NCBI GenBank assembly: GCA_963817895.1
Contig: CAWFQB010000005.1
Coordinates: 416,001-480,000 of the forward strand
Length of the DNA: 64,000 nt
Direction: 5' to 3'
DNA from: an uncultured Chthonomonadaceae bacterium
GTDB taxonomy: Bacteria; Armatimonadota; Chthonomonadetes; Chthonomonadales; Chthonomonadaceae
Shown: positions 1 through 42,121 of the stretch, piece after piece
How positions within the stretch are numbered: position 1 is the first letter of the stretch
Layout: each line of letters begins with the position of its first letter
Notes under the pieces: generated by a model
Database searches by the model: none
The model's input: only the letters and a program-made list of their open reading frames with translations
Told to the model about the DNA's origin: nothing
Program-made: the position numbers and the translations under genes

Positions 1-1612
1 AATGCAGCGGGAATTTCTGGCCGTTGAGGGAGGGCGCGACGGTCAATATGATTTGCCCATCCAGCGGGTAGCGCGTTTCCTGCGTGAGCGTGACGGTGAA
101 GCGGGCGGGCATCTTTCCCGGCATAAAGCCGGGAGTAAAGGGAAACTTCGTGTAGCCTTCCAGTATCTCTGTGGCCGTGCCGCTGTTGTAGATATTCACG
201 ACAAGGCCGCCGTCTTTACCGGTCATAGTGGCGAATTCGGGAATCAGGGCAATGCCGCGCGGCCCCGAAGAGTGGCAGCAGGTCGTGGCGGTATCGTAGG
301 GTTTGTGGCCGTCAAGCGGCGTGTAGTACGCCCAATCGTCCCCGGTCGGCTTTTGCGCCCCAAGCAGATGATTGTAAACGGACTTTTCCAGTTGGTCGGC
401 AAACTGCGCTTCCCCGGTCAGGCGCAGCAGTTCCAGATTCATCTGTTCCCACGTCACTGTCACGCAGGTTTCGCAAATGTTGGCGTTTTGCGCGTTGGGC
501 AGGTTGAAACTCGTCCTGAAAATGCTCGAACGAGGACGCGCTTCCCGTAATATACAGCCGGTTAGCGACAATGTCTTTCCACGCCGTTCGCATGTCGTCC
601 AGCAACCGCTTATCCCCGGTCACGCGGTACAACTCCAATAGCCCGTTGAAATTGGAGGTCATTTCGTAGGCTTTGGCATTGGCGACCTTGCGCACTGAGC
701 CGGTTTTTTCCAGACTCGCCAGTATCGCGGGACCACCCGGCGCATCATAATGCCGAACGATGTACTCCGCGAACTGTTTGTAACGCGCCTCATCCGTCGC
801 CCGGTACAGCAGCACAACCGCTTCCAAAACGCTGTCGGGAGCCATGCCCACATGCTCACCCGACTTGTTAATATCCCGTTGCCCCGCCCCATCCCCGAAC
901 GTTTGTATCAGCAGATCGCCGATTTTGCGGCATGCGTTTAATACGGTGGTTGGTGGTTGGTGGCTGGTGTTAGGTTCCTGTAAGGATGAGGGATGAGGGA
1001 TGAGGGATGAATCTCTCCTGCACTTTTCCCTTTTCCCTTTTCCCTTTTCCCTTCCTCTGTCTCTTCCCTTTTCCCTTTTCCCTCTTCCCTACTGTATTGG
1101 TAATACGTGAGCAGGCCGAGCAGGTCGTATTTGTGAACCCAGACATCCCAGCTTGTCCAGCGTTTGTTAGTGGGGTAAGTGCCTAAATAGCCGTCCGGTT
1201 CCTGCGTTTTGAGCAGGCGGGCAACGACGCGATCCAGTTTGGTTTTCAGCGCGGCATCGCCCGTGTTCTGCCAGGCGAGCGTGGCCGCGTGGAGGAATTT
1301 GCCGACGTGTTCGCCCTGCCAGTCCTGATGCGGAGCGTTGCGCCGCTCAAAGCAGTCGAGCATGTCGTCTTCGTTGACGTTGAGCAGGCGAATCTTTTCG
1401 TTCCGGTCAATGCGCGGGCCGAGCATCCCGCCCGTCAGCCGGATTTGATCGGGCGGCAGGGGCGAAAACACGTCCTGAACCTGCGCGGTATGGGGCAGAG
1501 CCAATCCCGTCGGGTTCTGCTGCGCCCGCGTCAGCATGGGCGCAGCGGCAAGCCCGAAACTTAGAGCAAATGTAGATACCGCGCGAAAGCGAAGTTTATT
1601 TTTTAGCAGCAT
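1..1612 (-). CDS. Secreted GH127-family glycoside hydrolase (beta-L-arabinofuranosidase-like); runs off the window edge; frameshifts at ~945-1090 and ~508
   Basis: ATG 1612 with signal-like N-terminus (MLLKNK...TRAQQ). Motifs WQGEHVGKFLHAA, QEPDGYLG, WDVWVHKY, KAYEM, and after manual reframing NICETCVTVTW and YYTPL...TCCHSSGPRG. Pieces lie in ORFs 938..2509, 312..851 and a third frame. Confidence 0.88.
945..1090 (-). repeat. Mosaic heptamer-repeat insert inside the GH127 gene
   Basis: Coding strand reads (GGGAAAA)n, (TCATCCC)3, (CCACCAA)n between YYQYS and VLNACRKIGDLL. Confidence 0.85.
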
Positions 1613-1620
1613 GGCGAATG

Positions 1621-2509
1621 TTAGTGCAGCAGTGAACCGGACGAGCCGGAATCTCGTCTGAATTTTGAAGGTTTTTTCCAGTTTGTAGGTGCGGCAGATG
1701 TCATCCAGCGCATCGTCGGCACTCCGAGCGGAATCATCGGCTTCCGAAGAGGCCGTACCCATCATGCCGGTCAGGGCGTTGAGCGCGTCGCCAGATTGCC
1801 CGCTGTTGGCCTGCGAAACGGCGTCATGCACCTTGTTGAACATGCCCTGAATTTTGCCCAGATGGTTGTAATACTTGTCGTGCAGTTCCACACACTCCTG
1901 CGGGGGGCGACGCGCCAGAAACGCCTGCGTCAATTTGTTCCACTCGTCGGACAGGTTGGCCGGGTTTTTGTTGATGTTGGGCAGGAACTCCGCCGACTTC
2001 TCATCATCCGTCGCCGCTTCCACCTCCTTCGCCATCATGCCCGCGTACTGACTGAGCGTGGCGGCAAGCTGCCGATGAATCAGACCCGCTTTGGTGCGCT
2101 CGACCTGCCGCACAAAGCGCAGATAATCATCAATATAGCTGTAATCGGCTTTGGGCGTGGGTTGCGTGGGCGGCGCAAGGATGGGAGTTTGCGGTTTGGT
2201 TTCCGCCGGGGCCTGTATCAGCGGGCCGGGGGCGCTTGTATTGGGAGCCTGTACCAGCCCGACCGCGTGGGTTTCGCCCGGTTTTTGCGCCAGCGAACTT
2301 TTCACCATCCAGCCGACGAGGGCAAGGACGGCAACCGCCAGCAGGCCAATAATGGCATACAGCGGACGCTGATTGTTTGCGGCGACCGGCATGGGAGCAT
2401 GCTGCGCGACAGGGGGCGCGTAGTTGGCGGCGGCATTAATGGGCGTACCGCAGCGCAGACAGAATTGAGATTGCCGGGGAACCTCGGCGGAACATCGCGC
2501 GCACTTCAT
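1621..2509 (-). CDS. Zinc-ribbon, single-TM, helical extracytoplasmic-domain protein; frameshift at ~1654
   Basis: CxxC...CxxC N-terminus, hydrophobic segment LYAIIGLLAVAVLALVGWM, Pro-rich linker. Removing one base gives ...FKIQT-DSGSSGSLLH* ending at TAA 1621, just upstream of the GH127 ATG. Confidence 0.72.
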
Positions 2510-2836
2510 AGCCTTTTCCTCCTGCGAAACAAACGGGTGTGGCTCACCTCTAAGAAGACAGGGAAAACAGAAAAATTATAACCGTTGCAACATCATACCA
2601 CGAACCCGATTGCCTGTCAATCAGGCGGGGATTCGCCGCGTATCACCCTTCTATACGGCATATTTTGGAGAAATATTCAGCATTATGCCGGGTCTTCAGC
2701 AGGAACGCGCTTGCGTCCACAGAATGAGGGACTATTCCCGATGAATATGACGTTTCCCTGTCAACGTTTGAACAATCCAGTATCGGAGGTTACGCAATGC
2801 CACGCATCCTGCAAAGGCGCAGCAAGCCGCCATTTT

Positions 2837-2860
2837 GGGCGCAGCAAGCAGCGCCCCTAC
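2837..2860 (-). repeat. GTAG-family REP palindrome (partial second copy at ~2816-2832)
   Basis: Minus strand GTAG-GGGCGCTGC-TT-GCTGCGCCC: GTAG tetranucleotide followed by an imperfect hairpin. Confidence 0.65.
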
Positions 2861-2977: not shown

Positions 2978-4069
2978 CTACATGCGTTTGCGGCGGGCAA
3001 ATACGCCTGCGCCCGACAAGCCCATTCCCGCAAGCAGGGCGATTGCGCCCGGTTCCGGCACGTTCGCGCCTTGAACGTTCAGGTTGCCGGTGAACTTCAG
3101 ACCCTGCCCGAAATGCTCCTCAAAGCCATGCCCCGTCAGCGTGTTGGCAATGAGATTGCCCTCAAAAAGCTGATTCTGGTCCACAAACGCGCCTGGCGCG
3201 AGGATGGAACCCTCGAAAGCGCGGTTGTTGATGTCAATCTCCGTCGCGTCCGCGAAGTTCCATAGGATATGGGAGTAGTCGCTGTTGCTGATGTCATTGA
3301 CCAGCGAAAAGAAGGTTTTTGTCAACTGCGCGCCAGTCACGTTGATGACCAGCGTATCATTGCCGCTCAGGTTCTGCACATGGATATTGGTTCCGTTCGC
3401 GGTTGCCAGCGTGGCCGCGCTGACCTCGGAGAATTTCAGTTTGCCCGTACTCGTGGTCAAGCCCGTTTGGGTGGCCGTGTCAATGTACCAGTTGTTCTGA
3501 TCCTGCATGAAGATCGCGCCATGCCCCGCCGCCGACTCGGTCTTGAGCGTACTCGCCTGACTCAGCGAAAAAGTTTTCTGATTGGTGAACACGTTGGTAT
3601 CAACGGCGTAACTGTACCCCGATGGAGTCACGAGCGGGCTGCCGGTGTAGATGTGTCCGCCGCCATTGAGATTGACGGGATGCTGATTGGGATTATCCGG
3701 GGGCGTGATAGTGTTGAACACGTACACGTCGCCGCCGTTGAGAACATTGGGCGAGTTGAACACATTGAGGTTTTTGCCCACATAAATGGCGATGTTGCTT
3801 TGTGTGCCGAGCGAATTGTCCGTTTTTTTCAGGCCGCTAATGGAGCCGCCAACGACCGCGCCCATGTGTCCAATATTGGTGTTGTAGCCAGTCACGTTAA
3901 ATGTGCCGCCCACCGCAACCCCGCCCTCCGCCTCGCCCGCGTTCACCATCGCATCGCCGAAAGTAAACACGTTGAACGCATTTGCTGTGCCAAGCGAAGT
4001 TTGTGCCGAAGCAGACCCGCCGACAAGCGCCAGCAGCAGAGCGGGAAGCAGTCTTTTGCTCAAATTCAA
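2978..4069 (-). CDS. Choice-of-anchor A domain PEP-CTERM surface protein
   Basis: Signal peptide; FNVFTFGD, EAEGGVAVGG, ILWNF, GSILAP; C-terminal VPEPGAIALLAGMGLSGAGVFARRKR. Confidence 0.85.
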   Translation of the reverse strand: MNLSKRLLPALLLALVGGSASAQTSLGTANAFNVFTFGDAMVNAGEAEGGVAVGGTFNVTGYNTNIGHMGAVVGGSISGLKKTDNSLGTQSNIAIYVGKNLNVFNSPNVLNGGDVYVFNTITPPDNPNQHPVNLNGGGHIYTGSPLVTPSGYSYAVDTNVFTNQKTFSLSQASTLKTESAAGHGAIFMQDQNNWYIDTATQTGLTTSTGKLKFSEVSAATLATANGTNIHVQNLSGNDTLVINVTGAQLTKTFFSLVNDISNSDYSHILWNFADATEIDINNRAFEGSILAPGAFVDQNQLFEGNLIANTLTGHGFEEHFGQGLKFTGNLNVQGANVPEPGAIALLAGMGLSGAGVFARRKRM

Positions 4070-4528
4070 TTTCGTAATTCCCCATCACGGCGTCCCTTGC
4101 AGCAGACGCCGTTCGCGTGTAAAAATGCTATAAGCGCAGCCGCAATATAGCAATGATAGCAATCAAGCGCAAATACCAGACGCGCATTTCATGCGCCGGG
4201 GAGAGTATAACACGCCTTTCGTATCAGTGTCCAATGATTTCGCGAAAACACGCACAATTGCCAGAGTTTGTATGCAATTTTCATGTACAATCGCTAATGC
4301 GAGTACCAGCAAATTACGGAGAACAGGGTATCGCAGTATCCTGCCGCGCTTTGGAAAATGGATAGGAAGGCATCGTTGTCTGATCGAACAACGGTGTCTC
4401 AAAACGCAGAAAAGGCGCAAAGATACTGCGAGAACAGTAGCTTTGCGCTTTGTGAAGAGGGGATAGCAAACAGGGATTATTTAGCTTTGATAATCCGGCA
4501 GAGGGGCTTGACAGCGTTGCCGAAAGTT

Positions 4529-6022: not shown

Positions 6023-6396
6023 GCGCTTCTCCTTCCACAGCAGTTTGTTGTTCATTACCTACAGGCCATCATTATACCTGCTGATTTTGTGTGATATGCT
6101 TGTGATTTTACACTGATTCTGCAACAAACGCGAAATTTACGGTATGTGGAGAAATCGTCGAAATAGTGGCAATGCAGCGCTTCCAGCCCGAAGTCTCGAT
6201 AGTTTATGCGGTTGTGTGTAGAGGCGTCGTGGCCTCGCGCGCGTTATGGCTGTCGGATGTGGACAGGCATCGGCTTCACCTCCCTTCCTTGTTTGTGGGG
6301 ACCGTATTCCGTTTTGGCAAGCAGGGTATATTAACATTGGGCGGCTTTTTAAGAAGTATGTCAATGCTGTTTTGGGGAAATATTTTGGAAGTTTCT

Positions 6397-6587
6397 ACCC
6401 TCATCCGTCGGGGGCCACCTTCTCCCTGCAAGGGAGAAGCGTCAATTGTTCAATAGGCGGCTGAATGGGAGATTGGGAAACATATAAAGAAACCATACAC
6501 CGAAACAAAATTTATCGTCAACGCACCCGATGAATAGTTTAGCCTTCTCCCTTGCAGGGAGAAGGTGGGCGAAGCCCGGATGAGGGT
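6397..6587. repeat. Inverted pair of REP-like palindromes (REPIN/BIME-like)
   Basis: ACCCTCATCCG..GCCACCTTCTCCCTGCAAGGGAGAAG (6397-6439) and its near reverse complement (6544-6587), about 105 bp apart. Confidence 0.8.
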
Positions 6588-6767
6588 AAAAACTTTTGTT
6601 TACGTGAACCGTTTGCGCAGCCCTTGTTTCCTTTGCGCGTCACCGAAATTGGACAAGTATTCTTCGTTGTACGGATGGTCGGCAGGCCGTGCCATCCTCC
6701 GCAAATCGAGGTACACTAAATCAGCAATAATACAGCCGGTTGGCATGGGGGCAGGAGAGAGAGAATT

Positions 6768-8811
6768 ATGGTTAGCGCGATAACTACAGATTTATATGAT
6801 GTGCAGACAAAGGCGCGGGGGCCGGTGGGCGAACTGCCGGTCACGGCGGATATGCTGCTGCACCGACCGAGCGGCGATATTTTCGCTCTGTCGCAGAACG
6901 CGGGCATGGGCTGGAATCCGAAACAGCTCAACCGCCGCGAATTTTTGATTCTGTCCACGCAGGGCGGCATCCGCAACCCGGACGGTTCGCCCGTCGCGCT
7001 CGGCTACCATACCGGGCATTGGGAAGTGGGGTTATTGATGCAGGCCGCGGCGGAAACGCCTGTCGGCAAACGATTGCCTGCCGTTTGCCGCGTTTTGTTC
7101 CGATCCGTGCGACGGGCGTTCGCAGGGCACGACGGGGATGATGGACAGCCTGCCGTACCGCAACGACGCGGCAACGGTTTTCCGCCGTTTGATACGCAGC
7201 CTGCCCAACCGTAAAGGCGTTTTGGGCGTGGCGACGTGCGACAAGGGCCTACCGGCGATGATGATGGCTCTGGCCGCGATGCGCGATTTGCCCTGCGTCC
7301 TGGTTCCCGGCGGCGTCACGCTTCCCGCCGAACATGGCGAGGACGCGGGCAAAATCCAGACAGTTGGGGCGCGGTTCGCGCATGGCCTGATTACCTTAAA
7401 AGAGGTGGCGGAAATGGGATGCCGAGCCTGCGCCACGCCGGGCGGAGGCTGCCAGTTCTTCGGCACGGCGGCGACTGCGCAGGTCGTGGGCGAAGCATTG
7501 GGCATGTCCCTGCCCCATTCCGCGCTCGCTCCCTCGGGGCAGGCCATCTGGCTGGATATGGCGCGGCAGTCCGCGCTGGCAATGATTGAAATGGCGACAA
7601 ACGGCGTGACCATGCGCGACATTCTCACAGACGACGCGGTGCGCAACGCCATGACGGTACACGCGGCCTGTGGCGGAAGCACGAACCTGCTGCTGCACAT
7701 TCCCGCCATTGCCCATGCCGCCAAACTGCGCCGCCCGACTGTGGACGACTGGCACACAATCAATGTCCGCACTCCCCGCCTCGTAGACGTGCTTCCCAAC
7801 GGCCCGACCGACCATCCGACCGTGCGCTTTTTCCTGTCCGGCGGCGTTCCCGAAGTGATGCTGCACCTACGCGAAATGGGATTGCTGCATCTGGACGCGC
7901 GGACCGTGTCCGGCAAAACCGTCGGCGAGAACCTGAACGAGTGGGAACACTCCGAACGCCGCGAACGATTGCGCGAACGATTGCGCGAACAGGACGGCGT
8001 TGATCCCGATGATGTGATTTTATCCCCCGCCCGCGCCCATGAAAAGGGATTGACCAGCACCGTCACCTTCCCGCGCGGCAACCTCGCCCCGCAGGGATCG
8101 GTCATCAAAAGCACGTCCATTGCACCCGAAGTGGTAGACGCGGACGGCATCTACCGCAAAACGGGACTGGCCCGCGTGTTCACGACCGAACGGGCGGCGA
8201 TTGAAGCGATCAAGGGCGTGGAAGAGGTCACGGAAGAAGAGGAGAAAAGGAGAAAAGGAGAAAAGGAGAAGTTGCAGTCAGACCTTTCCTCTTCTCCTCT
8301 TCTCCCCCTCTCCCCCTCTCGCGTTTTGCCCGGTGACATTCTCGTCCTCATCTGCCGGGGGCCGATGGGGGCGGGGATGGAGGAGATTTACCAGATTACG
8401 AGCGCGTTGAAGTTTCTGCCCTGGGGCAAGCAGGTGGCGGTGATTACGGACGCGCGGTTTTCGGGGGTTTCGACGGGCGCGTGTATCGGACATGTCGGGC
8501 CGGAAGCGCTGGCGGGCGGGCCGATTGGCAAAATCGTGGACGGGGATGTTATCGAGATCGTGATTGACCGCAACAGTCTGGAAGGCACGGTCAACTTGAT
8601 CGGGCATGGCGAAACGCGGTTCGGGGCGGAGGAGGGGACGCGGGTTCTGGCCGAGCGTCCGATGCGTCCCGACCTGCATACCGACCCGGATTTGCCGGAC
8701 GATACGCGGCTGTGGGCGGCGTTGCAGGCGGTCAGCGGTGGGACGTGGGGCGGCTGCGTATACGATGTAGACGAGATCGTGTCACGGCTAAACGTTGTCG
8801 GCGGCGTTTGA
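6768..8811 (+). CDS. yagF: YagF/YjhG-family D-xylonate dehydratase (IlvD/Edd family); frameshift at ~7059
   Basis: [21 protein letters not shown] (after removing one C), [45 protein letters not shown]. Confidence 0.88.
8241..8320 (+). repeat. In-frame octamer inverted-repeat insert in the dehydratase
   Basis: (GGAGAAAA)3GGAGAA, a spacer, then (YTCTCCYC)n; encodes [26 protein letters not shown]. Confidence 0.85.
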
Positions 8812-12689: not shown

Positions 12690-12772
12690 GGCTCACTCCC
12701 AACACAAAAACTTACGCGAAAATAAAGGTAAACTTAACAAACTACCAACCACCAACCACCGGAGAATAATTC

Positions 12773-18728: not shown

Positions 18729-20306
18729 ATGCTTATGTCTATCGCTCATTTTCTCCCCGGGTTTGCCGTGATTACCTGTCTCGAACTGGCCGTTATCTTC
18801 TTCCTGCTTTACCGGTATGTGGATGCCGAAAAGTCCAACGCGATCTTCAGTTTGCTGTGCCTGTGTTTCGCCTGCATGATCTGGAGCACCTACGAGTTGG
18901 TTCATGCGGAAAGCGTGACTTTCCGGCTGCTAATGGTTCGGTTTCACCTGACAACCGCGACTTTCGGCCTGCTGATGTATCGGATTCAACTGATGAGCGG
19001 GATTTTCGCCGCTGCCGCATCGGTCCACTTTGCGCGGCTTATCACGCAAGCCGCCCCTATTTCCACTGTGCCTTCAGCCTCACCCCTTCCACAACGCTTT
19101 GCGGCGCGATGGCGCGCGCTGACAGCCGTTCTCGCGCTCTGCCCCTGGCATCCCTTCGTGCTGCATCGCCTGTACAAATATGCGCCTGTGGATGATTACG
19201 ATTCGGCAATGGCCGGCCCGTGGTTCCGCCACTACATTCTTGTTATATTTTCAGGGTCCCTTTATGCGTGTGGCCTCTTCATTGTCGCCTGGAAACAAAA
19301 CAGGAAGAATAAGAGGACGGCTATAGAGGTTGTGGAGGAGGGTTATCGCGTATTCGCCAGTCAGACTTTGTGGCTGGTGTTCAGTTTTGGATTGATCCTG
19401 CTGGCAAGCGTTATAGAATTCATTCAGGCGGTGGAGGGTCCCAAAAACACCTGGTATTTCCCCGTATTTCCGCGCGCGTGGGCAATCCTGGTCTTTTGTT
19501 TTACCACCGCGTACAGCCTGGCAAAGCAGATTGTGGTGAACGAGCGGCGCAAAGCGCAGATCAGAGCGGTTGCCGAAACGCGCCTGGAAGCCACGCGGCA
19601 TATCCAGCATCAGGTGCGAAACGCGCTGGCGCAAATTCAACGGCCGTTGCACACCGTTCTGGAGCAATCGCCGGTCGAACCTTCGGAAGCGGGGCAGGCC
19701 GCAAACCGGCAGCGCGTGATACGCGCAACGGCAGCCATTGAGGAACTACAGCACACGCTGGATGTCGCGCTCAATCTGGCCCGCGTGGAGGTGGGCGAAC
19801 CGGTCAAATTGGGCGCGAAAACTTCGGTTCCGATTGCGAATTGGGTGGAAATGTTGTGCCGCGCCCGGCTCGGTTTGGAGGACGCGGCTTCCCCTTCGCT
19901 CGCCCAAATTCTGCAATTGAAGTTCCATGCCGATCTGTCTGTCGTGGACGTGTATGTGTATGCGGACGCGCTGCGGGAAGTGTTCGCGGTTCTGCTGGAC
20001 AACGCCTGCAAGTACGCCCCGAAAGGCAGCCTGCTCACCGTTCAGGTCTGGAACACTCCCGACCGGCTCTGCTTTTGCGTGGCCGATCAGGGCTGTGGCG
20101 TCCGCCCCGAAGATAAAGAGCGCATTTTCGAGTTGTACAGGGGACGGCAGCCTGCTGTGGGGCATATTGCGGGTACGGGCATCGGCCTGACGCTGGCAAA
20201 ACGTTACATCGAGGCGCAGGGCGGCGGCATCCGCGTTGAAAGCGAAGGCGACGGACAGGGCAGCGCGTTTTATTTCCATATCCCTCTGGAAAAGGATGAA
20301 GGATGA
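18729..20306 (+). CDS. Multi-TM sensor histidine kinase
   Basis: About 7 hydrophobic segments; H-box IQHQVRNAL, N-box LLDNACKY, G1 DQGCG, G2 GTGIGL. Confidence 0.9.
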   Translation: MLMSIAHFLPGFAVITCLELAVIFFLLYRYVDAEKSNAIFSLLCLCFACMIWSTYELVHAESVTFRLLMVRFHLTTATFGLLMYRIQLMSGIFAAAASVHFARLITQAAPISTVPSASPLPQRFAARWRALTAVLALCPWHPFVLHRLYKYAPVDDYDSAMAGPWFRHYILVIFSGSLYACGLFIVAWKQNRKNKRTAIEVVEEGYRVFASQTLWLVFSFGLILLASVIEFIQAVEGPKNTWYFPVFPRAWAILVFCFTTAYSLAKQIVVNERRKAQIRAVAETRLEATRHIQHQVRNALAQIQRPLHTVLEQSPVEPSEAGQAANRQRVIRATAAIEELQHTLDVALNLARVEVGEPVKLGAKTSVPIANWVEMLCRARLGLEDAASPSLAQILQLKFHADLSVVDVYVYADALREVFAVLLDNACKYAPKGSLLTVQVWNTPDRLCFCVADQGCGVRPEDKERIFELYRGRQPAVGHIAGTGIGLTLAKRYIEAQGGGIRVESEGDGQGSAFYFHIPLEKDEG

Positions 20307-20530
20307 AGGGATTTTCGATTTTCGATTTTCGATTGTGTCTCCTCTTCTCGTATCTCGTATCTCGTATCTCCTATCTCTCCTCTAATTCTCGTAACGTATA
20401 CAGGTGTTTAGCAACCAAAATGTAGCCTGTACAGAACTCCGCTTTTGTTGTATCCTGCATCTATAGTTTTCAGGGATAACGCGCCTCCGTTATTTAAGGT
20501 GGCGTGACATTCATCCTTCATCCTTCATCC
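20294..20530. repeat. Nested heptamer arrays between kinase and response regulator
   Basis: (GGATGAA)2 containing the kinase stop, (GATTTTC)3, (TCTCGTA)3, then (TTCATCC)3 just before the regulator RBS. Confidence 0.85.
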
Positions 20531-20549
20531 TTTGCCAAAGGGGTTCGCT

Positions 20550-21209: not shown

Positions 21210-21236
21210 CAGCGCGAACCGGGAGCGAGACGCACG

Positions 21237-24200
21237 ATGAAAACTGTCTGGCAGATAACGCTGTTCACCAAAATGTCCGTGTGCCGGGAAGGACAACCTC
21301 CTCTGAAATTGCGCAAGCGCCGCAGCGCGGAGTTGCTGGCCTACCTTGCGCTGCATCGGGGTCGGGAAAATCGGCGCGAAATGCTGGCATCGCAAATCTG
21401 GCCGGAAGACGGCCCGGACGTGAGCCGCCAGAACCTGCGCTCCGCGCTCACCCTTCTGCGTGAACATCTGGAAACGCCGCCTATCCTGGAAGACGGCCTG
21501 GCCGGGAATGTGGTGCTGGCGGATACGGTTGTCGCGTCCCTGAACTTCGAGTGCGTGACAACGGATGTTGCCGCTTATGAAGCCCTGCTGCGGCAGGTAG
21601 AACCCTCGGATACAAACGGCAAGCGCATTGTGTTGCTTCGGGAGGCGACGGCCCTTTACGGCCATGGGCTTTTACCCGAATGGTACGACGAGTGGGTGTT
21701 GAACGAACAGAACCGCTTGCGGCAGGAACAGCAGCAGGCTCTGATGCGGTTGTCCGGGCTATTGCGCGACCGCGACGAGAACGAGGAGGCTATCCTCCGG
21801 GCGCGGCAGGCTCTTGCCTTAGATGCCCACCATGAACCGGCTCACGAGTGTTTGATGCGCGCGTATTTGCAGGCCGGACAAACCACTTCGGTGTTGCAGC
21901 ATTACAGGCGCATGGAGCAGGTGTCCGGCGAATGTGAGGGGGACGCGCCCTCCCCGAACCTACAGGCGCTGGCGCGGCAGGCGCGAATTCAGGCGCAAAT
22001 AGCCCGCAGGACGGACAACACCCCGGCAAACTTGCGCCCCGCTAACCTGCCTGTTCCCCCGACACAGTTTTTTGATCGCGTGGACGACCTTGCCAACCTG
22101 CGCGGACTCCTGCGCTCCGAACGGAAGTTGATAATCCTGACAGCCATCGGGGGCGCGGGCAAAACCCGGCTGGCAATGGAAACCGCGCGAAGCCTGCAAA
22201 TGGATTTCGACGGGCGCGTATTTTGGGTGGAACTGGCGGCCCTGACAAACGCGGACGGCATTGCGGAAGCGATAGCCGAAACGGTTCTGCGTCAGCGTCG
22301 CGCGGACACGCCTGCTTGGGAACAACTGGCGCAGGACGCGGGTAACGCGCAAGTCCTGCTGGTTCTGGACAACTTCGAGCATCTGGCGGAAACGGGCGCA
22401 AATGTGGTTCAGGAACTAATGCGTCGGCTGCCAGTCTGGAAACTGCTGGTCACGTCGCGGCAGGCGCTGCGGATACCGGGCGAACAAACGTATGCCGTGC
22501 CACTTCTGACTCCACAAGCCAGTGTGGAGTTGTTTGCGGATCGCGCCGGACTGGTCAATTCGTCGTTTGTTCTAAACGCGCAAAACACGCCCCTTGTTAT
22601 GGCCCTGTGCAAACGTCTGGACGGCCTGCCCCTTGCGCTCGAACTGGCTGCCGCGTGGTCGGACCTGCTGACTCCGGCAGAAATTCTTCAGCGTCTGGAA
22701 TTCCGTTTCGATCTGCTGGTAAGCCACTACCGCGCGGTTCCCCTGCGCCATCGGAGCCTGTACGCCATGATTGACTGGAGCCACGCGCAATTGCCGCCCG
22801 CTCTACAACAGTTGTTCGCGCGCCTGTCCGTCTTTCGAGGCGGCTGGAACGTGGAAGCGGCGCAGGCGATAGAAGGGGTCAGGGGCCAGGAGTCAGGGGT
22901 CAGGCAGGAGGGAATAGAAGAAGCGATCTCAGCAGGCAGGAACGAGCCGCGCGAGAGGAAGTTTGATTCTGAGACGGACATTTTGTTCGGGCTGCGGGAG
23001 TTGCAGGCGCGGTCGCTGATTGTCGGGACGCAAACCGATGCCGGGACGATGCGCTACGCCATGCTGGAAACTCTGCGCGAATTTGCCCACGCGCGGCTTT
23101 CCGAAACGGAACGTTCCCACATGGCGGATAGCCACGCCGCGTATTTCCTGAATCTTGCCGAAACCGCAACTCCGCATTTGAACGGGCCGGAAGCGAAAAC
23201 ATGGCTGGACGCTCTGGACAGGGAGCGCGAAAACCTGAATGTCGCGCTGGATTGGCTGTGCGAGCAGCGACAAACGCAGGAGAGTTCGCGTCTGGCAACC
23301 GCGCTGGCCCCGTTCTGGTGGACGCGCGGCCATGCGAGTGAAGGGCGGCAACATTTTACCCGTGTTCTGGCGCTTTCCGACGAGCCAACGGTGTTACGCG
23401 CCCGGACTTTGCGCTATGCGGGCGCGCTGGCGAGCTACCAATCCGATCTGGCGGCCTCCACGCGCCTGCACATCGCAAGTCTGCGCGTGGCGCGAAAGTT
23501 GCAGGATCAGAATAGTATCGCCTGGGCGCTGTATCAACTGGGGCATACCCGGCTGACTCAGGGCAAATACCAAAAGGCGTACCGTCACCTTGACAAATCT
23601 CTACAGATTTGCGCAACGGATACGGATGAGGATACGCACCTGCAAGCCGTGACGCTGCATAAAATTGGCAGCGTCCTTCTGGTACAAAACGCCTGGGAGG
23701 AGGCGGGCCGTTATTTTCAACGCAGCGCGGCTCTGTTTCATGAACTTGGCGACCGGCAGGCAGAGGCGACTTCGCTGCTCAACATCGGCAATGTGCTGGT
23801 CAATCAGGGCCGTACGGACGACGCTCGGACGCAGTACCAACGGGCGCTACAGATGTTCGGAAGCGTCGGAGATGTCCTGATCGTGGCCGTCACGCAGCTT
23901 TGTCTGGGCGGCGTCGCCTATCGCGGCAACAGGGACGATGAAGCGCGGCAACTCATGGAAACCGCTCTGGACACATTCCGGCGTTTAGGAGCGCGCATCC
24001 ATGAAGCCTGGGCGCAGTTTTATCTGGGCAATCTGGCCTGGCAGCAGGGCGACCAGGAATCGGCGCGAGAGCTTTATAGAGATAGCCTGCTGCTGCTACG
24101 GGAAAGCGGTGATCAGCGGCGAACCGCGCTTCTCGTCATGGCCTTCGGCTGGCTGGCGCAGTCGGAAAACAACCCGCAGCGCGCGGCGCGTTTATTTGGA

Positions 24201-24804: not shown

Positions 24805-24938
24805 AAAAGCGTGGATTCTGTTCCCAACGGTTTCAACAGGGACGACACCACGCTTTGCGGCAGCCCTGAGCAGGCATTTTGCCTGCTCACATCAACATGC
24901 GGGAACAAAGTAACCTTCAAAGCAACCTGAGAACTATG

Positions 24939-25044
24939 GCCCGCCTTCTGTTTATGCAGAAGGCGGGCTTTTTGCTATTCCTTAAAAGCCAATATTCTTA
25001 TTGGCAGCCCGGTTTCCCGTCTTATGGAAGCCGGGCGCTTTTTT
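24939..25044 (+). terminator. Two tandem intrinsic terminators
   Basis: GCCCGCCTTCTG/CAGAAGGCGGGC+T5 (24939-24973) and GCCCGGTTTCC/GGAAGCCGGGC+T6 (25007-25044). Confidence 0.8.
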
Positions 25045-25162
25045 GCCTGCGAAGGGGACGCAGCGGAAAAACACGGCAGGGAAATGCAAGGCAGGCGTCG
25101 AAATACACTCCGTTTCCACTACTTGCAGGTGGACACCAACCACATTGTTGAGGAGAAATGCT

Positions 25163-26197: not shown

Positions 26198-26210
26198 TGG
26201 AAGACACGCC

Positions 26211-27026: not shown

Positions 27027-27089
27027 TGTCACCGGGCGTTCAACTCAATCATCGAATCACCAACAAAATCATAGAACGGAAACAAAAGC

Positions 27090-28742
27090 ATGTTTGAAAC
27101 GGTGCGGTTGGAGAAAACGGAGCGTCCCGCCGTTGTGGTCATCGGGATGTTCAAGGATAGGGACGCGGTAAGCGATTTGGCGCAGGTTTTGCCCCTGTAC
27201 GGGCGTCCGGTTGTCGAAGCCGCGCTGTCCCGGCGGGAATGGACGGGCGACGCGGGCAGCATCAGCGAAGCGTTTCCACAGGGCGAAAACGCGCCGCAGC
27301 GTATTCTCATCGTTGGGCTGGGCAAGCGCGACAAGCTGAACGCCGAAGCTATGCGCGACATTGCCGCCAAAGTGGGGCGGCGATTGGCGCAAATTAAAGA
27401 GCCGAATGTCCGCGTAGAAATGGCCCCCCTGCTTAAAGCGGCAGGCGTAGACGAGACGCAAATCACGCTGTACGGACGCTGCTGGGGCGAAAGTCTGGGA
27501 CTGCTGGCCTGGAACGCGCGAACGCTGGCGGGCAGCGCGACCAAAAACAGAGCCACAAATGGCGAGCCTGGCGACACTAGCGGCGCAAACGGCAGTGAGG
27601 GCGGCAAAGAGGATACTACTGCGCCCGACCGGATCGCCCTGACCGTGACCGCTTCCGATACGGCGTTTACGGCGGGGCTGGAATATGGCCTGACGCTGGC
27701 GGATGCCGTGAATCGGGCGCGCGCTCTCAGCCAAACCCCGCCCAACATCGCCACGCCCCTCTACATCGCGCAACTTGCGCTACAGCTTGCCGCAGAAACC
27801 GGCCTCACTTGCCGCATCCTTCAGGGCGAGGAACTGGAACAGGAACAACTCGCCGGACTAATCAACGTCGGCAAAGCATCCGTCAACCCGCCGTGCCTGA
27901 TACGGTTAGAGTATATGCCGGCAGAGGGAAGAGAAGAGATACGAGATACGAGATACGAGATACGAGAAGGAGCGGATTCACCAACCACCAACCACCAGCC
28001 ACCAACCACCTTAGTCTTGATTGGTAAAACCATTACCTACGATACCGGCGGATTGTCGCTGAAAATCAACAATGGCATGGTGGGCATGAAGCGCGACAAG
28101 GATGGCGGTTGCGCCGTCCTGGGCGCGATGGCGGCGGTTGCCACGTTGCTCAAACCGAACTTTCCGGTTGTCGGGCTGCTCGTGGCGGCGGAAAACATGG
28201 TTAGCGACGCCGCGTTCCGGCCCGATGATGTGCTGACGTACCGCAACGGCGTTACGGTCGAAGTGACGAATACGGACGCGGAGGGGCGTTTGGTGTTGGC
28301 GGACGCGCTGTGCTGGGCGTGTGAACGGGAAAATCCGGGCGCGATTGTGGATTTGGCGACATTGACGGGCGGCGTGGTCACGGCACTGGGTTCCACGTAT
28401 GCGGGGCTGTTCTGCGAGGACGACGGCCTGCGCGCGCAACTGGAACAGGCGAGTGAGGCAAGCGGCGAACGCATCTGGCGGCTGCCGCTGCATCAGGAAT
28501 ACCGGGACATGCTCAAATCGCCCGTTGCCGACATTATCAATTCCAATCCTAATCGCAAAGCGCATCCCATACAGGGCGCGGCCTTTCTGAGCTACTTTGT
28601 TACGGAAAATATGCCCTGGGCGCACATAGACATTGCGGGCGTTCACGCCGTTGACGGCGACAATGGTCCCTTCGTGAAAGGTCCGACGGGCTACGGCGTC
28701 CGCCTGCTCGCCGATCTCGTCACCGCCTACACGCCAAAGTAA
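27090..28742 (+). CDS. pepA: Leucyl aminopeptidase (M17)
   Basis: IGKTITYDTGGLSLK, MKRDKDGG, NTDAEGRLVLAD, ATLTG, WRLPL, WAHIDIAG. Confidence 0.93.
   Translation: MFETVRLEKTERPAVVVIGMFKDRDAVSDLAQVLPLYGRPVVEAALSRREWTGDAGSISEAFPQGENAPQRILIVGLGKRDKLNAEAMRDIAAKVGRRLAQIKEPNVRVEMAPLLKAAGVDETQITLYGRCWGESLGLLAWNARTLAGSATKNRATNGEPGDTSGANGSEGGKEDTTAPDRIALTVTASDTAFTAGLEYGLTLADAVNRARALSQTPPNIATPLYIAQLALQLAAETGLTCRILQGEELEQEQLAGLINVGKASVNPPCLIRLEYMPAEGREEIRDTRYEIREGADSPTTNHQPPTTLVLIGKTITYDTGGLSLKINNGMVGMKRDKDGGCAVLGAMAAVATLLKPNFPVVGLLVAAENMVSDAAFRPDDVLTYRNGVTVEVTNTDAEGRLVLADALCWACERENPGAIVDLATLTGGVVTALGSTYAGLFCEDDGLRAQLEQASEASGERIWRLPLHQEYRDMLKSPVADIINSNPNRKAHPIQGAAFLSYFVTENMPWAHIDIAGVHAVDGDNGPFVKGPTGYGVRLLADLVTAYTPK
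27936..28010 (+). repeat. In-frame heptamer insert in PepA
   Basis: (GAGATAC)4, a spacer, then (CCACCAR)4; encodes EIRDTRYEIREGADSPTTNHQPPTT just before the metal-binding strand. Confidence 0.88.
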
Positions 28743-28791
28743 TTTTCGTTTCAGACCGTAACTCTTCCGCCTCATCTCCCAACGAACCAGT

Positions 28792-28837
28792 CTCCCCTTC
28801 TCCCAGGCTTTTTTGGGACAAGGGGCGGGGGTGAGGG
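28792..28837 (-). repeat. REP-like palindrome, same family as 36349-36393
   Basis: Reverse complement CCCTCACCCCCGCCCCTTGTCCCAAAAAAGCCTGGGAGAAGGGGAG matches the 36349 copy. Confidence 0.8.
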
Positions 28838-28854
28838 CTACTCCGAGGAAAACC

Positions 28855-29766: not shown

Positions 29767-29796
29767 TATATAAGAACGCCCCAAAAAGGAAAACAT

Positions 29797-30825
29797 TTGA
29801 AAGCGGGAGTTTTAACGGTCAGCGATGGGTGCGCGCGTGGGGAACGGGAAGACGTTTCGGGGGCCACGCTTGCCGACACGTTGCAGGCAAATGGCTATGA
29901 AATCGTTCAGCGCGCGATTGTGCCGGACGAATTGGAAACCATTGCTGACACGCTGCGGCAGTGGCGCGCGTCCGGCTGCGACCTGATTATGACGACGGGC
30001 GGCACGGGATTTTCGCCTCGCGACATCACGCCGGAAGCCACTCGCGCCGTTGTGGAACGCGACGCGCCCGGTCTGGCCGAACTGCTGCGCTGGACGGGCT
30101 ACCAGAAGTTCCCCCGCGCTGTCCTGTCGCGTGGGGTTGCGGGCATTTGCGGCCAAACCCTGATTGTCAATCTGCCCGGAAGTCCCGGCGGCGTCCGCGA
30201 CGGTCTGGACACTCTGCTCCCGCTCCTCCCCCACGCCCTCGCCCTGCTGCGCGACGAACCGGTGGATCATACGCCTGTAAAGGAGGGTGTCGGGTTTCGG
30301 ATTTCGGGTGTCGGGGAAAATGCCAAGCCGACAAAGTCTGTTGAAAATGATAACACCCGACACCCGACACCCAACACCGTTGCCGTTCTGGAAACTAATC
30401 TGGACGATTTTTCGCCGGAGTTGTACGAGGTGGTGATGGAGCGGTTGTTTGCGGCGGGGGCGGTGGATGTGTTTTTGACCGACATTCAGATGAAGAAAAA
30501 TCGGCCTGCCACTCTGCTGACAGTTCTGGCGGCGGAAGACAAACGCGACGAAATGGCGGCAGTTTTGTTTGCGGAAACCAGCACGTTCGGGATTCGGCAT
30601 ACGGCTATGCAGCGCATGACACTGGAACGACGGTGGGAAACGGTAGAAACGCCTTATGGTTCGGTTCGCGTGAAAATCGGGAGTTGGCAGGGACGCGATA
30701 CAACCGCTTCGCCCGAATACGAGGACGTGAAAGCCGCCGCCCGCGCGCATAGCGTTCCCGCCAAAACCGTCTACGCGGCGGCGCAGGCGGCTTTCGCCAA
30801 TACGCGCCAGGCGGCTTCTTCGTAA
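29797..30825 (+). CDS. Fusion of MogA/MoaB molybdopterin adenylyltransferase and LarC C-terminal (nickel-pincer insertase) domain
   Basis: N-half LTVSD, TTGGTGFSPRDITPEA, LSRGVAG, NLPGSP. C-half ETNLDD, DVF..IQMKKNRP, ETSTFGIR, TPYGSVRVK, PEYED. Confidence 0.85.
   Translation: MKAGVLTVSDGCARGEREDVSGATLADTLQANGYEIVQRAIVPDELETIADTLRQWRASGCDLIMTTGGTGFSPRDITPEATRAVVERDAPGLAELLRWTGYQKFPRAVLSRGVAGICGQTLIVNLPGSPGGVRDGLDTLLPLLPHALALLRDEPVDHTPVKEGVGFRISGVGENAKPTKSVENDNTRHPTPNTVAVLETNLDDFSPELYEVVMERLFAAGAVDVFLTDIQMKKNRPATLLTVLAAEDKRDEMAAVLFAETSTFGIRHTAMQRMTLERRWETVETPYGSVRVKIGSWQGRDTTASPEYEDVKAAARAHSVPAKTVYAAAQAAFANTRQAASS
30285..30378 (+). repeat. Heptamer inverted-repeat element forming the MogA-LarC linker
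   Basis: GGTGTCG/GGTTTCG/GATTTCG/GGTGTCG, a spacer, then (CACCCRA)3; the arms are complementary. Confidence 0.85.
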
Positions 30826-30902
30826 ATGTTCGGGACAGGCATCAAGTACATGGCAAACTCCGGCTGTAGCGGGAGTTTGCCACGCAACAGCGCGGGACGT
30901 GT

Positions 30903-36333: not shown

Positions 36334-36348
36334 CCCCCCGCGGCTCCG

Positions 36349-38188: not shown

Positions 38189-38209
38189 ACCGGTAAAGTT
38201 GCGGAAAAA

Positions 38210-38285
38210 GGGAGTAGGTTGTAGGGAGTAGGGGAAGCCTTGTTCAACTTGCGTATTGTCCTACTCCCTACAACCTACCCCCTAC
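38210..38285. repeat. Inverted tandem-repeat element overlapping the serine hydrolase stop
   Basis: GGGAGTAGGTTGTAGGGAGTAGG / CCTACTCCCTACAACCTACCCCC (23 bp, 1 mismatch). Confidence 0.8.
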
Positions 38286-39586
38286 ATCCTGCCAAACAAA
38301 TCGCCTTCAGGCCACGTTTTCACTTTTCCGGCGGCGACGTGCAGAGCGCCGTCTATTTCGCCGTCCGAGGGCATATTGCCCGTAGAGCGCTGATTGAACA
38401 GAGCGGCCCACGCGAGGCCGTCCCACCGGCGAATCAGCCATGTGCTTGTGCCGGGAAGACTGCCGGTATGCCAGATATTGCGCTTTGCCTGCGCCCCGTT
38501 TTCGACTTCGCGCGCCTGCCAGCCACAGCCGTAATAGACCGGGTTTGTTCCGGCGTCGGCATCCTGTAGCGCGTCAGGACGGGCGTACATGGCGCGGACG
38601 CTTTCGGGTGTCATCAGCGGTCTGCCCTGTGGAAAGTCTAAACCTCCTGCAAACCGCGCCAGATCAACCGCCGAGGCCAGCCAGCCGCCGTGCGCGTCCA
38701 TCGCCTCGATGTTGAACCCGCCATAGCACCACGACACCTGTTCACCATTGGATTCAGGGAAAATGGAAGCGGTTTCCTCCCCCGGCTGATAATAGCAGAC
38801 CTCGTTTTCGCGCCGATTCTTGCGCAGTGAACGCCCCAACGCCATGCGCTGAATGTGCAGGGGCGCGAGAACCGATTGCTGTACGTAGGTTCCATACGGC
38901 AATCCTGTCACTTTCTCAATCACGCGGCCCAACACGCAGTAGCCAAAGTTGGAGTAGGCGTAATGTGTTCCCGGATCGGTATCCAGCGGCTTGCCGAGCG
39001 TCCAGCGGATGATGGCGTGGGCGTCGGCGGGCGCGGGTGTGCCGAGGGCATGGGCGATTTCCAGCGGCCTGAACATCGGGTCGCCGGACTTGTCGCGATC
39101 CCAACCGGCCGTATGCTGCAGCAGTTGCCGAATGGTGATGAATTCAAGGCGCGGGTCGAGTTTTGCGCCGGGTTCCAGATGCGGGGCCAGTCCGAGCAGG
39201 GGAAACGCGCGAGTATCCAGCGTCAGTTTGTAGCGCGGGTTCTGTATCAGCGTGAATATTGCCACAGCGGTGAACGGCTTGGAAATGCTGGCGATGCGGA
39301 ACAGCGAACCCGGCTGAACGCGCTGCCCGGTCGCTTTATCCGCCACGCCATAACCCCGCGCATACACTAATCGCCCGTCCTTCACGACGGCAAGCGAACC
39401 ACCCGGCACATTGCGCTTCTGCATAAAGGCGGTCATGGTATCATCGAAACTTTGCAGGTCGGGATTGAAAACGCCCGTTGTAGGAAGCGCGTCGCCCCAT
39501 GGCGCGGCTTCGGAACCCTCGGTCATAGCCTGAACTCCCAATGTAGATAGCACAGTAGTCTGCAGCAGTTGTCGGCGTGTCAGCAT
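38282..39586 (-). CDS. Tat-exported serine hydrolase (beta-lactamase class C/AmpC-like family)
   Basis: TRRQLL twin-arginine signal; FRIASISK (SxxK), LLQHTAG, YAYSN, WHTG. Confidence 0.9.
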   Translation of the reverse strand: MLTRRQLLQTTVLSTLGVQAMTEGSEAAPWGDALPTTGVFNPDLQSFDDTMTAFMQKRNVPGGSLAVVKDGRLVYARGYGVADKATGQRVQPGSLFRIASISKPFTAVAIFTLIQNPRYKLTLDTRAFPLLGLAPHLEPGAKLDPRLEFITIRQLLQHTAGWDRDKSGDPMFRPLEIAHALGTPAPADAHAIIRWTLGKPLDTDPGTHYAYSNFGYCVLGRVIEKVTGLPYGTYVQQSVLAPLHIQRMALGRSLRKNRRENEVCYYQPGEETASIFPESNGEQVSWCYGGFNIEAMDAHGGWLASAVDLARFAGGLDFPQGRPLMTPESVRAMYARPDALQDADAGTNPVYYGCGWQAREVENGAQAKRNIWHTGSLPGTSTWLIRRWDGLAWAALFNQRSTGNMPSDGEIDGALHVAAGKVKTWPEGDLFGRM

Positions 39587-40765: not shown

Positions 40766-40781
40766 CAGGAGAGACAGAAGA

Positions 40782-40950
40782 AATAGACAGGATTAACAGG
40801 ATTTTCAGGATTAAACAGGATTAAAATCACGAAAAGAGGTTATTCACATTGCGTAACCACGTTTGTAAATCGTGTTGACAGAACAGCCTCTTCATCTTGC
40901 ATCCGAACTAATCCTGTTTAATCCTGAAAATCCTGTTAATCCTGTCTATT
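40782..40950. repeat. 42-bp perfect inverted repeat built of CAGGATT-based 9/10-mers, 85-bp spacer
   Basis: 40782-40823 is the exact reverse complement of 40909-40950. Confidence 0.92.
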
Positions 40951-40959
40951 GTATCCATC

Positions 40960-42121
40960 ATGCTTACTTACCAGATCATCGTTACTTTGTTGCTGCTGAA
41001 CTTTGTCTTTCTGGTGGCGCGGAATTTGCGCGATTATGCCGTTTTGCCGCCCGATTTGCCGCCTGCGCGTCCGCTTGAACGCTTGTTCGTGCTGATACCG
41101 GCGCGGAACGAGGCGGAGAATATTGGGGATTGTTTGAACGGGCTATTGGCGCAGCCGGAACACGCCGCGCCCTTTCCGTTCACGCTGCTGGTACTCGACG
41201 ACGCTTCGGACGATGGTTCGGACGCTATTATTGAGGAGATTGCCGGTCGAGATAACCGCGTTCATCTGCTGCGCGGCAAGCCCATCGAAGCGGGATGGGC
41301 GGGCAAGGTGTGGGCGTGTACTCAGTTGGGAACCGAAGCGCTGAACCGGGGCGCAGACTGGCTGCTGTTTCTGGACGCGGACACGCGGGCGAAACCGGAG
41401 TTGTTGAGCGCATCCTTGGCCCACGCGCAGGCAACCGGCGCGGGCATGGTCAGCACGTTTCCCTATCAGGTGACAGGCACGTTCTGGGAGCGGGTCGTCC
41501 TGCCCATGTTGCATTTTCTGATTATCACATTTTTGCCGATTCGTATGGTGTGGGAAAGCAAGTTTCCGCAACTGGTGGCCGCGTGTGGGCAGTTCGAGTT
41601 GTTTTCTGCGGAAGCGTACCGGGCGGTCGGGCGGACACGGCAGTATTCCCCACTCGTTTCACGATGGCCTGCAACTCGCGCGGCGCGTCAAGGCGTCAGG
41701 CCGGAATGTTCGCCTGTGCGACGCCAGCAGTCTGATTTCGTGCCGCATGTACGCGGGCGGGAAGGCGGTCTGGAACGGCTTCACCCGCAACGCCTATGAG
41801 GGATTGGGCGGCGTTGCGCCCTTGATTGTGATGAGCGGCCTGCAAACTATTTTGTTTCTGCTGCCATTTGTGTTTGGGGCGTTGGCTGTTGGCTGTTGGC
41901 TGTTGGGCATTCGAGTATGGGGCGTCTCTTTTCCCTTGTTGGGAGTACAAATTTTGCTAATTCTGCTGATACGGGTGATGCAGGCGCGGCGGTTCGGACA
42001 CGTTGATAGTATCTGGCTGCACCCGCTTTCGATTGCCGCGCTGGTCATTATTCAATGGGCGTCGTTCTGGAAAACGCTTCGCAAATCGCATGTCGCGTGG
42101 AAGGGCCGCGTGTATTCGTGA
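40960..42121 (+). CDS. GT2 glycosyltransferase (carotenoid CrtQ/CruC-like); frameshift at ~41630
   Basis: IPARNE, DDASDD, GWAGK, LFLDAD, ACGQF; continues in ORF 41585..42121 (GGH, CRMY, WKGRVY). Carries (GTTGGCT)3 at 41881-41901. Confidence 0.85.

Follow-up and report, generated by a model that had tools for sequence, protein, structure and literature searches.

The window analysed here, 64,000 nucleotides from an uncultured Chthonomonadaceae bacterium (positions 416,001-480,000 of contig C5 of the source genome, G000, which is 7.48 Mb in 14 contigs and 81%-complete), carries short tandem arrays of 7- and 8-base units both between genes and inside protein-coding genes, among them those for GH127, a YagF/IlvD-family dehydratase, a STAND ATPase, PepA, MogA-LarC and a GT2 protein. 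The arrays belong to a modular, genome-wide non-coding repeat family with arms from different unit families, as a preliminary description made from the letters of the window had proposed. An element consists of a G-rich arm followed by a C-rich arm, which form a hairpin between genes and mostly a non-pairing hybrid within them. Comparison with the relatives G001, G002, G003 and G013 indicates that the sites persist between species while the units occupying them turn over. The in-gene hybrids are attributed to a filter on the encoded peptide, and the inserts are likely to be translated.

Every array named in the preliminary description was found by Tandem Repeats Finder, and Pfam fitted the gene labels. 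The peptides EIRDTRYEIR, PTTNHQPPTT and GVRGQESGVR are present in the reading frames, and the same units do recur between genes (12740-12760, 20346-20377 and 20510-20532), as well as in further intergenic members of the window that had not been listed. The genome scan it had suggested returned, for exact arrays of at least three copies in G000, 557 at period 7 and 174 at period 8, compared with 0 and 0 in an order-5 Markov simulation (3 Mb, scaled to genome size); there were 7 at period 9, and none at periods 10-14 in the 7.48 Mb. A chance origin of the period-7 and period-8 arrays is excluded. A tolerant scan of G000 recovered 2,007 arrays in 1,210 clusters, 62 kb in total, and array density was 417 per Mb in the DNA of G002 that was compared (1.67 of about 8.0 Mb) and 87 per Mb in that of G001 (0.96 of about 6.6 Mb). 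Units are drawn from a shared repertoire, and their ranking differs by lineage among the three genomes.

Arms are stereotyped in length, with 4-5 copies in 1,098 of the 2,007 arrays, or about four units, and a median of 31 bp in G000 and G002 alike. The commonest units, ACGAGAT, AAGGATG, AGGTTGTT and AAAAGGAG, all lack GGG, which is present in some lesser families. Irregular variants of an arm are found with identical letters at many loci, one interrupted variant in 12 copies. Among 737 adjacent pairs, G-rich then C-rich was the order in 569 and the reverse in 4, so that G/C skew sorts the arms better than purine/pyrimidine content does (477:24). The order is identical on both strands and is therefore a property of the element and not of the coding strand; the preliminary description had the order right, but its tie to the coding strand does not hold. 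No C-then-G order occurred among 175 in-gene clusters, left arms always preceding right arms. Between genes, the arms of two-armed elements classed by a coding model were reverse complementary in 192 of 212 cases in G000, with stems of median 28 bp enclosing loops of median 46 bases and 43% G+C, and elements nest in one another, as at 20292-20532. Loops were also considered as captured genome fragments, a proposal that was rejected (weak matches in 23/136 against 8/136 shuffles, mostly of 16-20 bases or to the loops or arms of other elements), as was the proposal that they are themselves hairpins (mean z -0.6).

Within genes the arrangement is different, since 84 of 106 two-armed elements in G000 were non-complementary hybrids; the corresponding figures for G002 were 23/31 hybrids in genes and 55/58 hairpins between them. 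Arms of mixed families thus appear, from their distribution, to be mainly an in-gene phenomenon that arises from selection on the peptide. The coding model placed 175 clusters of G000 in open frames, and dozens of genes, likely about 175, carry in-frame inserts of 7-8-base repeats. Because that open-frame class excludes stops by definition, in-gene sites were also defined by homology, both flanks having to match one protein, which gave 82 of 1,208 clusters with broken ones kept. About one third of in-gene inserts would be expected in frame without selection; 68 of the 82 were open and in frame, 12 were shifted and 2 carried a stop, compared with 228, 19 and 2 of 249 random coding stretches. 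The frame was also kept at 48/55 sites in G002 and 7/7 in G001, one of these seven not being a true heptamer array. The G000 assembly is itself indel-prone, as the 19/249 frameshifted coding stretches with a homologue (8%) show, and the GT2 and GH127 genes of the window are broken outside their arrays as well.

A run of three heptamer copies reads all three frames, and for most families one orientation consequently yields a stop or a hydrophobic run. The homology-defined in-gene arms of G000 read as polar, stop-bearing and hydrophobic peptides in 137, 11 and 7 cases, whereas the intergenic arms gave 193, 207 and 101, a depletion in genes of stop arms (p 1e-17) and of hydrophobic arms (p 3e-13). 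G002 gave 94, 10 and 6 in genes and 52, 80 and 12 between them (p 2e-15 and 0.02). Stop-free families, which are sorted by hydropathy alone, are strongly one-sided in genes, the left:right counts being 46:2 for AAAAGGAG, 27:2 for ACGAGAT, 0:16 for GGTGGTT and 0:7 for CGGTGTT, but near 1:1 outside genes. The left arm of AAAAGGAG reads KRRKGEKE (46) and its right arm LLFSFSPF (2), while GGTGGTT occurs in genes as the right arm only (n=16), with the peptide NHQPPTT. Families with stops both ways, such as AGGTTGTT with 151 arrays, have zero members in the open-frame class. The sorting is reversed in the GT2 membrane segment, where hydrophobic-reading arms are kept, different ones in G000 and G002. 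A peptide filter, seen as depletion of stop-bearing and hydrophobic arms, thus appears to produce the in-gene hybrids. This depletion, together with the kept frame, makes it likely that the inserts are translated and not removed from the RNA, so that the removal or bypass at the RNA level envisaged earlier finds no support.

Some hybrids have probably spread as units. In the module formed by a GAGATAC arm, a spacer and a TTCATCC arm, the spacer measures 9 bases in 22 of 29 cases and never 6 or 12; the 9-base modules are nearly all open in frame EIREGEDSSFILHPSS and lie in different, mostly unrelated genes. One hybrid at 22 copies in mostly unrelated genes indicates that hybrids are probably copied. 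Near-identical twin junctions were found for 15 of 79 in-gene elements and 2 of 45 short-looped intergenic ones, and the G002 dehydratase and one G002 STAND protein carry almost the same insert. A strict pattern for the GAGATAC/TTCATCC hybrid matched 14 copies in G000 and was absent from the 67 other genomes among 68 of the class that were searched. Two metagenome scans with hybrid-arm patterns returned 0 stretches, although records near G000 may be excluded from them, and they are no firm guide to the range. The PepA spacer was considered as a retained ancestral core and rejected, with similar spacers present in unrelated genes and orthologous loops mostly unconserved (mean z about 1).

Sites are more stable than their occupants. 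An array was present at the G000 site for 127 of 197 mappable G002 clusters (of 438) and, in the reverse direction, in G002 for 124 of 139 mappable G000 clusters (of 1,210). The units of orthologous arms nevertheless differ by at least 2 letters in 128 of 175 comparisons, with flanks 84% identical; 22 of the 175 are identical and 25 one letter apart (random pairs, 1.6% and 4.2%). At sites with a hairpin in both species, units differ in 34 of 38 cases, both arms together and often in the same register, and replaced arms fill the same length with no visible remnant. PepA gives the closest view, four relatives having four arm combinations in one loop at 94-98% identity; two pairs among them are 98% identical in the catalytic region, and a fifth relative at 97% has a short loop. 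Its nearest named relatives are Chthonomonadaceae (best-segment identity 87% and 69%), which makes membership of that family likely for the organism. The preliminary description had taken equal-length, non-periodic loops in distant orthologues as evidence against insertion; of 99 distant PepA homologues parsed (of 120), 95 have 11-28 residues at the loop, and peptides of this type are absent from them, which answers that objection. Together with GH127 and the orthologous arms, these comparisons bear out the proposal that the inserts remodel proteins. Clean filled/empty site pairs numbered 29, and no target duplication was evident by eye in those inspected, the species being at most 84% identical. 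A gene-less CAGGGAA-armed hairpin in G002 (C49 near 339078) lies in highly conserved DNA, is absent at the G000 counterpart (C4 near 879651) and extends a local stem like an intervening sequence; we take the surrounding DNA to be 23S rRNA.

The genes suspected in the preliminary description of being bracketed by such arms are indeed so placed. In G000, both four-helix-bundle genes (PF05635, 2/2, with 8-mer arms) and all GxxExxY genes (PF13366, 4/4, with looser 9-10-mer arms) lie between inverted arms. At the PF05635 loci of relatives, stems of at least 17 were found in 18 of 21 examined (of 30), and for 15 the best-pairing partner is the locus's own 3' flank. Ten cassette loci of relatives were queried, and 4 could be mapped to G000, where 3 are gene-less hairpins of another unit and 1 is empty. 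Conversely, one G000 PF05635 site holds a gene-less 10-mer hairpin in G002 and two hairpins in G001, and the other holds a toxin-antitoxin-like pair with a solo arm in G002 (C24:82671-83578) and is empty in G001. Four of the six cassette genes fall within the 43 complementary pairs that are 150-1,500 bases apart; the remaining pairs yielded no further cargo genes, enclosing ordinary genes, nested elements or transposase-like open reading frames (ORFs). The link of the two gene families to the arms is an association, seen only as shared architecture and shared sites.

Two other candidate movers were rejected. None of 3 Y1 genes (candidate REP-associated tyrosine transposases, RAYTs; REP, repetitive extragenic palindromic) has heptamer arms within 300 bases, the nearest arrays being 1-2 kb away; two of them are intact and have other palindromes on their flanks, and the third is broken and adjoins a second ORF. 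The sole reverse transcriptase found in G000 lies in an unrelated gene cluster. The RAYT-like Y1 genes at C5:223662-224000 and C2:68237-68578, each within its own palindromic repeats, constitute a separate REP system. A non-tandem module of about 25 bases reading VHPQGRT, with 17 copies in G000 (for example C5 near 157124 and C3 near 342253) and one in the examined part of G002, sits within some heptamer elements, also in genes, and within REP-like palindromes like those flanking the C2 Y1 transposase. The reverse transcriptase (C6:132948-133580), presumably retron-like, carries a long extra stretch at its N-terminus; a 663-aa ORF lies upstream of it.

We give somewhat better than even chances to the in-gene inserts being translated, gene-less derivatives of small hairpin cassettes, overwritten repeatedly by copying from other elements, with selection on the peptide choosing the arm. 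A cassette or gene-less hairpin would insert, with no target duplication, at a tolerant place such as an intergenic gap, the tip of an RNA helix, or a protein loop or linker. The site would remain a hot spot at which arms of other loci substitute in register for those present, in a gene-conversion-like event between elements of common G-then-C polarity. Within a gene, only a polar, stop-free arm would be retained, and a successful hybrid could then act as donor for other genes. The cassette proteins would probably supply nicking or strand handling in trans, which is the weakest step. The anatomy, the polarity, the sharing of sites, the turnover of units, the kept frame, the peptide bias and the multi-copy hybrids are observed; translation itself, the copying and the role of the cassette proteins are what we infer. 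A bolder and rather doubtful extension is that a transposase-free system encoded by the four-helix-bundle and/or GxxExxY cassette genes recognises G-then-C sites, rewrites their arms and, in this lineage, acts as a standing generator of loop variants. Polar peptides of 7-residue periodicity would then form a library exchanged between well over a hundred proteins at a pace exceeding the divergence of the proteins themselves, and hybrids would spread as selfish peptide cassettes.

Several observations weigh against repeated overwriting of cassette derivatives. Intergenic loops are nearly all unique, only 26 of 238 having a relative and the top-scoring ones through nested arms, and they are no more similar to cassette genes than shuffled loops are (22.5 vs 22.0, 120 loops), for which reason they were rejected as decayed cassette genes. 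Loops that are unique and unlike cassette genes imply that whole intergenic elements are not simply copied. Frameshifts affect 12 of 82 in-gene sites (15%) and 19 of 249 background stretches (8%). For most dominant unit families the 81%-complete genome contains no cassette gene, and G001, which has arrays and five matches to PF13366, has none to PF05635. Among the PF05635 loci of relatives, 3 of 21 lack a clear stem, and one cassette, from another genus, has the polarity reversed. The comparisons drew on parts of G002 and G001, in which some mapped pairs may be paralogues, and the coding model left 695 of 1,208 clusters unclassed and outside the in-gene and intergenic counts.

Serial insertion without conversion, in which new hairpins enter older ones and in genes the harmful arm is deleted to leave mixed arms, accounts for the nested elements, including that at 20292-20532, for the invariant order of left arms before right arms, for the 29 clean filled/empty pairs, and for the GH127 site, whose outer arms are common to G000 and G002 while the inner arms differ. 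It would, however, require an often stop-bearing intermediate in each gene, and it leaves unexplained the 22 same-hybrid copies with a 9-base spacer, the near-identical dehydratase and STAND inserts of G002, and the replacement of arms at the same length without remnant, so that we regard it as unlikely. Less likely still is the fresh synthesis of arms at a break by a template-guided, telomerase-like polymerase, with each 3' end gaining about four G-rich units. Such growth at both ends would yield exactly the G-rich then C-rich order and would fit the fixed copy number, the unique loops and the lack of a visible target duplication. The four-helix-bundle protein could serve as template chaperone, as we assume it to be related to Avd, which has that role in diversity-generating retroelements. 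The location of the sole reverse transcriptase speaks against such synthesis, and the recurring irregular variants (12 copies) and the spacers shared from gene to gene fit copying of DNA modules better.

The overwriting of cassette derivatives also has to be set against explanations that involve no dispersed system or no translated insert. Ordinary microsatellite behaviour, with point mutation and slippage in tolerant loops, is very improbable: slippage would not converge on a few dozen units at hundreds of loci, nor give the four-copy peak, the 569:4 polarity or the paired arm changes (34/38), even though identical and one-letter orthologous arms (22/175 and 25/175) exceed random pairs and loop length in PepA and GH127 also differs among distant homologues. 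A similarly small chance is given to the inserts being spliced out or bypassed at the RNA level. Related intervening sequences in 23S rRNA are cut by RNase III, according to the cited part of a report on Coxiella (PMC4990558), and the GH127 gene is frameshifted in the same phase at the insert in G000 and G002, as its only break in the latter; but three genomes keep the frame, there is a depletion of stop-bearing and hydrophobic arms, the arms of most in-gene elements cannot pair, and the GH127 relatives are in frame. That the arrays are a sequencing or assembly artefact is hardly credible despite the indel-prone assembly, as the same sites hold arrays in independent genomes and database proteins, where the units differ and the frames are open, and sorting by peptide chemistry would not be expected of an artefact. 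Reads from one run matched 21000-31000 in short pieces, none of those listed crossing an insert.

The family shares traits with several known systems and coincides with none. Cyanobacterial short tandemly repeated repetitive (STRR) heptamers (Mazel 1990) and a prokaryotic heptamer excess (Mrazek 2007) have reportedly been described as repeats without known mechanism, and the likeness lies in a period-7 excess far above other periods; the cited passages mention neither two-arm polarity nor a link to cassettes or a peptide filter. A classical miniature inverted-repeat transposable element has a shared internal sequence, whereas 212 of 238 loops here had no relative. In the cited parts of Rehm et al. 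2015 (PMC4692102), the G-rich heptamers of Xanthomonas (GGGAATC) and Nostoc show a four-unit preference and inverted pairs, are mostly intergenic and have conserved sites, all of which, with the heptamer excess, is mirrored here. Those genomes, however, have one unit family each, 7-11% intragenic in Xanthomonas, with a G-quadruplex explanation, and the same parts describe no cassette gene; here there are dozens of families, many without G-tracts, along with unit turnover at fixed sites and peptide-sorted hybrid arms in genes. In Coxiella, the 23S rRNA intervening sequence has a 28-bp terminal stem whose loop encloses the S23p four-helix-bundle ORF, and tandem heptamers precede this ORF (PMC4990558, in part). 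The PF05635 ORF within a terminal stem is a likeness that applies to the cassettes and not to the in-gene inserts; that sequence lies in an rRNA helix only and is excised by RNase III, whereas the present elements occupy protein genes and the gaps between them, and those in genes mostly do not pair and are likely to be translated.

Rickettsia palindromic elements and intragenic REPs are, in the sections cited, found in frame in unrelated genes, REP dimers adding 20-30 aa (PMC10969869, PMC3733652), and in-frame insertion in unrelated genes with short added peptides is common to both. Each of their families is a palindrome conserved in sequence and in peptide, unlike the tandem 7/8-mer arms and unique loops found here, where in-gene arms come from two families (84/106 non-complementary) and the peptide is replaced between close species. 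REPINs, as described in the part cited (PMC3116915), have inverted arms around a poorly conserved spacer, occur in hundreds of copies and are moved in trans by a rare repeat-flanked gene, the RAYT. The inverted doublet with variable spacer, the many copies and the lack of a visible target duplication are alike, but here the stem ends share no terminal tetranucleotide, the GTAG of the REP motif pair GTAG/CGTC being at 20 of 450, and the flanked genes are PF05635 and PF13366, not a Y1 transposase. In sum, the element is closest in its working to a REPIN or a Rickettsia-type non-autonomous element and in its build to an S23p intervening sequence, but lacks defining features of each, as far as the cited sections describe them. 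The open-access papers searched yielded no description of units turning over at fixed sites or of hybrid in-gene arms sorted by peptide.

The open-access papers examined, in the parts cited, give no accepted cause for heptamer excess in bacterial genomes and state no function for PF05635 and GxxExxY proteins. This genus links all three, and offers hundreds of orthologous sites that are filled, empty, gene-bearing or unit-swapped. The in-gene subset shows how translation can sieve a two-armed element into non-pairing hybrids, and suggests that these can spread independently. The inserts also mark out places on the surface of ordinary enzymes where 20-50 foreign residues are tolerated, and they carry a warning for annotation, as peptides such as EIRDTRYEIR and SSFILHPSSF in database proteins are repeat-derived and not domains. 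If it is true that an enzyme drives the overwriting, this would represent a novel type of site-directed DNA rewriting.

The members of the window are collected in Table 1. The six arrays described as lying within genes are all present, although the assembly has a shifted frame at GH127, and the GT2 array, with a gain of only 3 bases, replaces part of a membrane segment. The STAND and GT2 arrays show a single arm each.

Table 1. Heptamer-family elements in the window (window positions; a dot marks an element without strand)
Feature	Position	Strand	Arms and setting
GH127 insert	945..1090	-	G-rich GGGAAAA arm 1023-1090, spacer, C-rich TCATCCC 984-1010 and CCACCAA 945-969
YagF/IlvD-family dehydratase in-frame insert	8235..8320	+	AGAAAAGG arm, then TCCTCTTC/TCTCCCCC arm
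Solo 10-mer arm CGCGAATGAA	11141..11169	+	type bracketing GxxExxY gene on contig C8
Solo C-rich CCACCAA arm	12740..12760	+	just upstream of S9 peptidase
Nested intergenic element	20292..20532	+	outer AAGGATG/TTCATCC pair, inner GATTTTC and TCTCGTA arms; fold z -3.4
Solo G-rich AGGGGTC arm, in frame, STAND ATPase	22874..22904	+	
PepA hybrid in-frame insert	27936..28010	+	GAGATAC arm 27936-27967, 11-base spacer, CCACCAA arm 27979-28010
MogA-LarC in-frame element	30285..30378	+	near-complementary GGGTGTC/GACACCC arms (30285-30315, 30353-30378), in domain linker
Solo 8-mer arm CCATAAAA	36440..36476	+	outside called ORFs
AGGGAGT-family hairpin	38209..38290	.	3' end of beta-lactamase-family gene; fold z -9.2
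Gene-less hairpin, ACAGGATTA arms	40787..40945	.	arms match those around contig-C1 GxxExxY gene; fold z -13.1
Solo GTTGGCT arm in GT2 membrane part	41881..41906	+	hydrophobic-reading; net +1 codon
AGGGAGT-type hairpin	44352..44420	.	AGGCATT hairpin at same site in G002
Solo CTATCAA arm	57084..57113	+	between genes
Intergenic AATGATG/ATTCATC hairpin with short CTCTCCA arm	60362..60455	.	fold z -14.1

The GH127 insert is 104 bases longer than the G001 counterpart. The break at the insert has the same phase in G000 and G002 and is the sole break in the G002 gene, whereas the G000 gene has two further ones. Programmed -1 frameshifting was rejected as its cause, with relatives in frame and an assembly background of 8%. 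A long loop occurs in 7 of 79 parsed relatives (of 120), 4 of them clearly arm-derived, in frame and with other arms, and loop length varies in distant homologues too. The ORF at 938-2509 appears to fuse a zinc-ribbon protein to the GH127 N-terminus; its two parts map to separate places in G001, and the fusion is therefore likely to be an assembly frameshift.

The dehydratase insert is 90 bases longer than in G013 and falls at a two-residue gap of the solved relative 6ovt (2 residues vs 35); the site has GATGAAT/TCATCAC in G002 and other units in G003. Among STAND paralogues, 7 of 16 have a repeat insert at the window's position, with four unit types. The PepA insert, 66 bases longer than in G001, cannot pair (fold z +3.1) and in an AlphaFold model forms a loop between strands 269-275 and 307-318. 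The low confidence there, expected where the alignment is empty, is at most a weak hint of disorder. PepA also has a second, non-repetitive acidic insert of about 25 residues (27540-27640), which is variable in form throughout the genus, G001 included. At the MogA-LarC site, G002 and G001 carry other units.

In the nested element, which includes the arrays at 20346-20377 and 20510-20532, the outer arm encodes the last codons and the stop of a histidine kinase. The ACAGGATTA-arm family of the 40787-40945 site is also present in G001, and G002 has a GATATTA hairpin there. The GT2 array is only 3 bases longer than in both G001 and G013; in G002, two other hydrophobic-reading arms occupy the site with length nearly unchanged. 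The GT2 Pfam domain is on the upstream, frameshifted piece.

The window also holds other repeats. Two dispersed, non-heptamer repeats lie upstream of the dehydratase operon (6140-6290 and 6385-6600, the second a palindrome of about 210 bases), each with many matches in G002 and in G001. A small basic ORF (42261-42608) contains a 33/66-base coding repeat (42369-42559) that has no relation to the heptamers. Ahead of the ORF at 3269-4150 lie a short inverted repeat (2840-2870) and a stretch of about 85 bases (2978-3062), which have several matches in G001 and G013.

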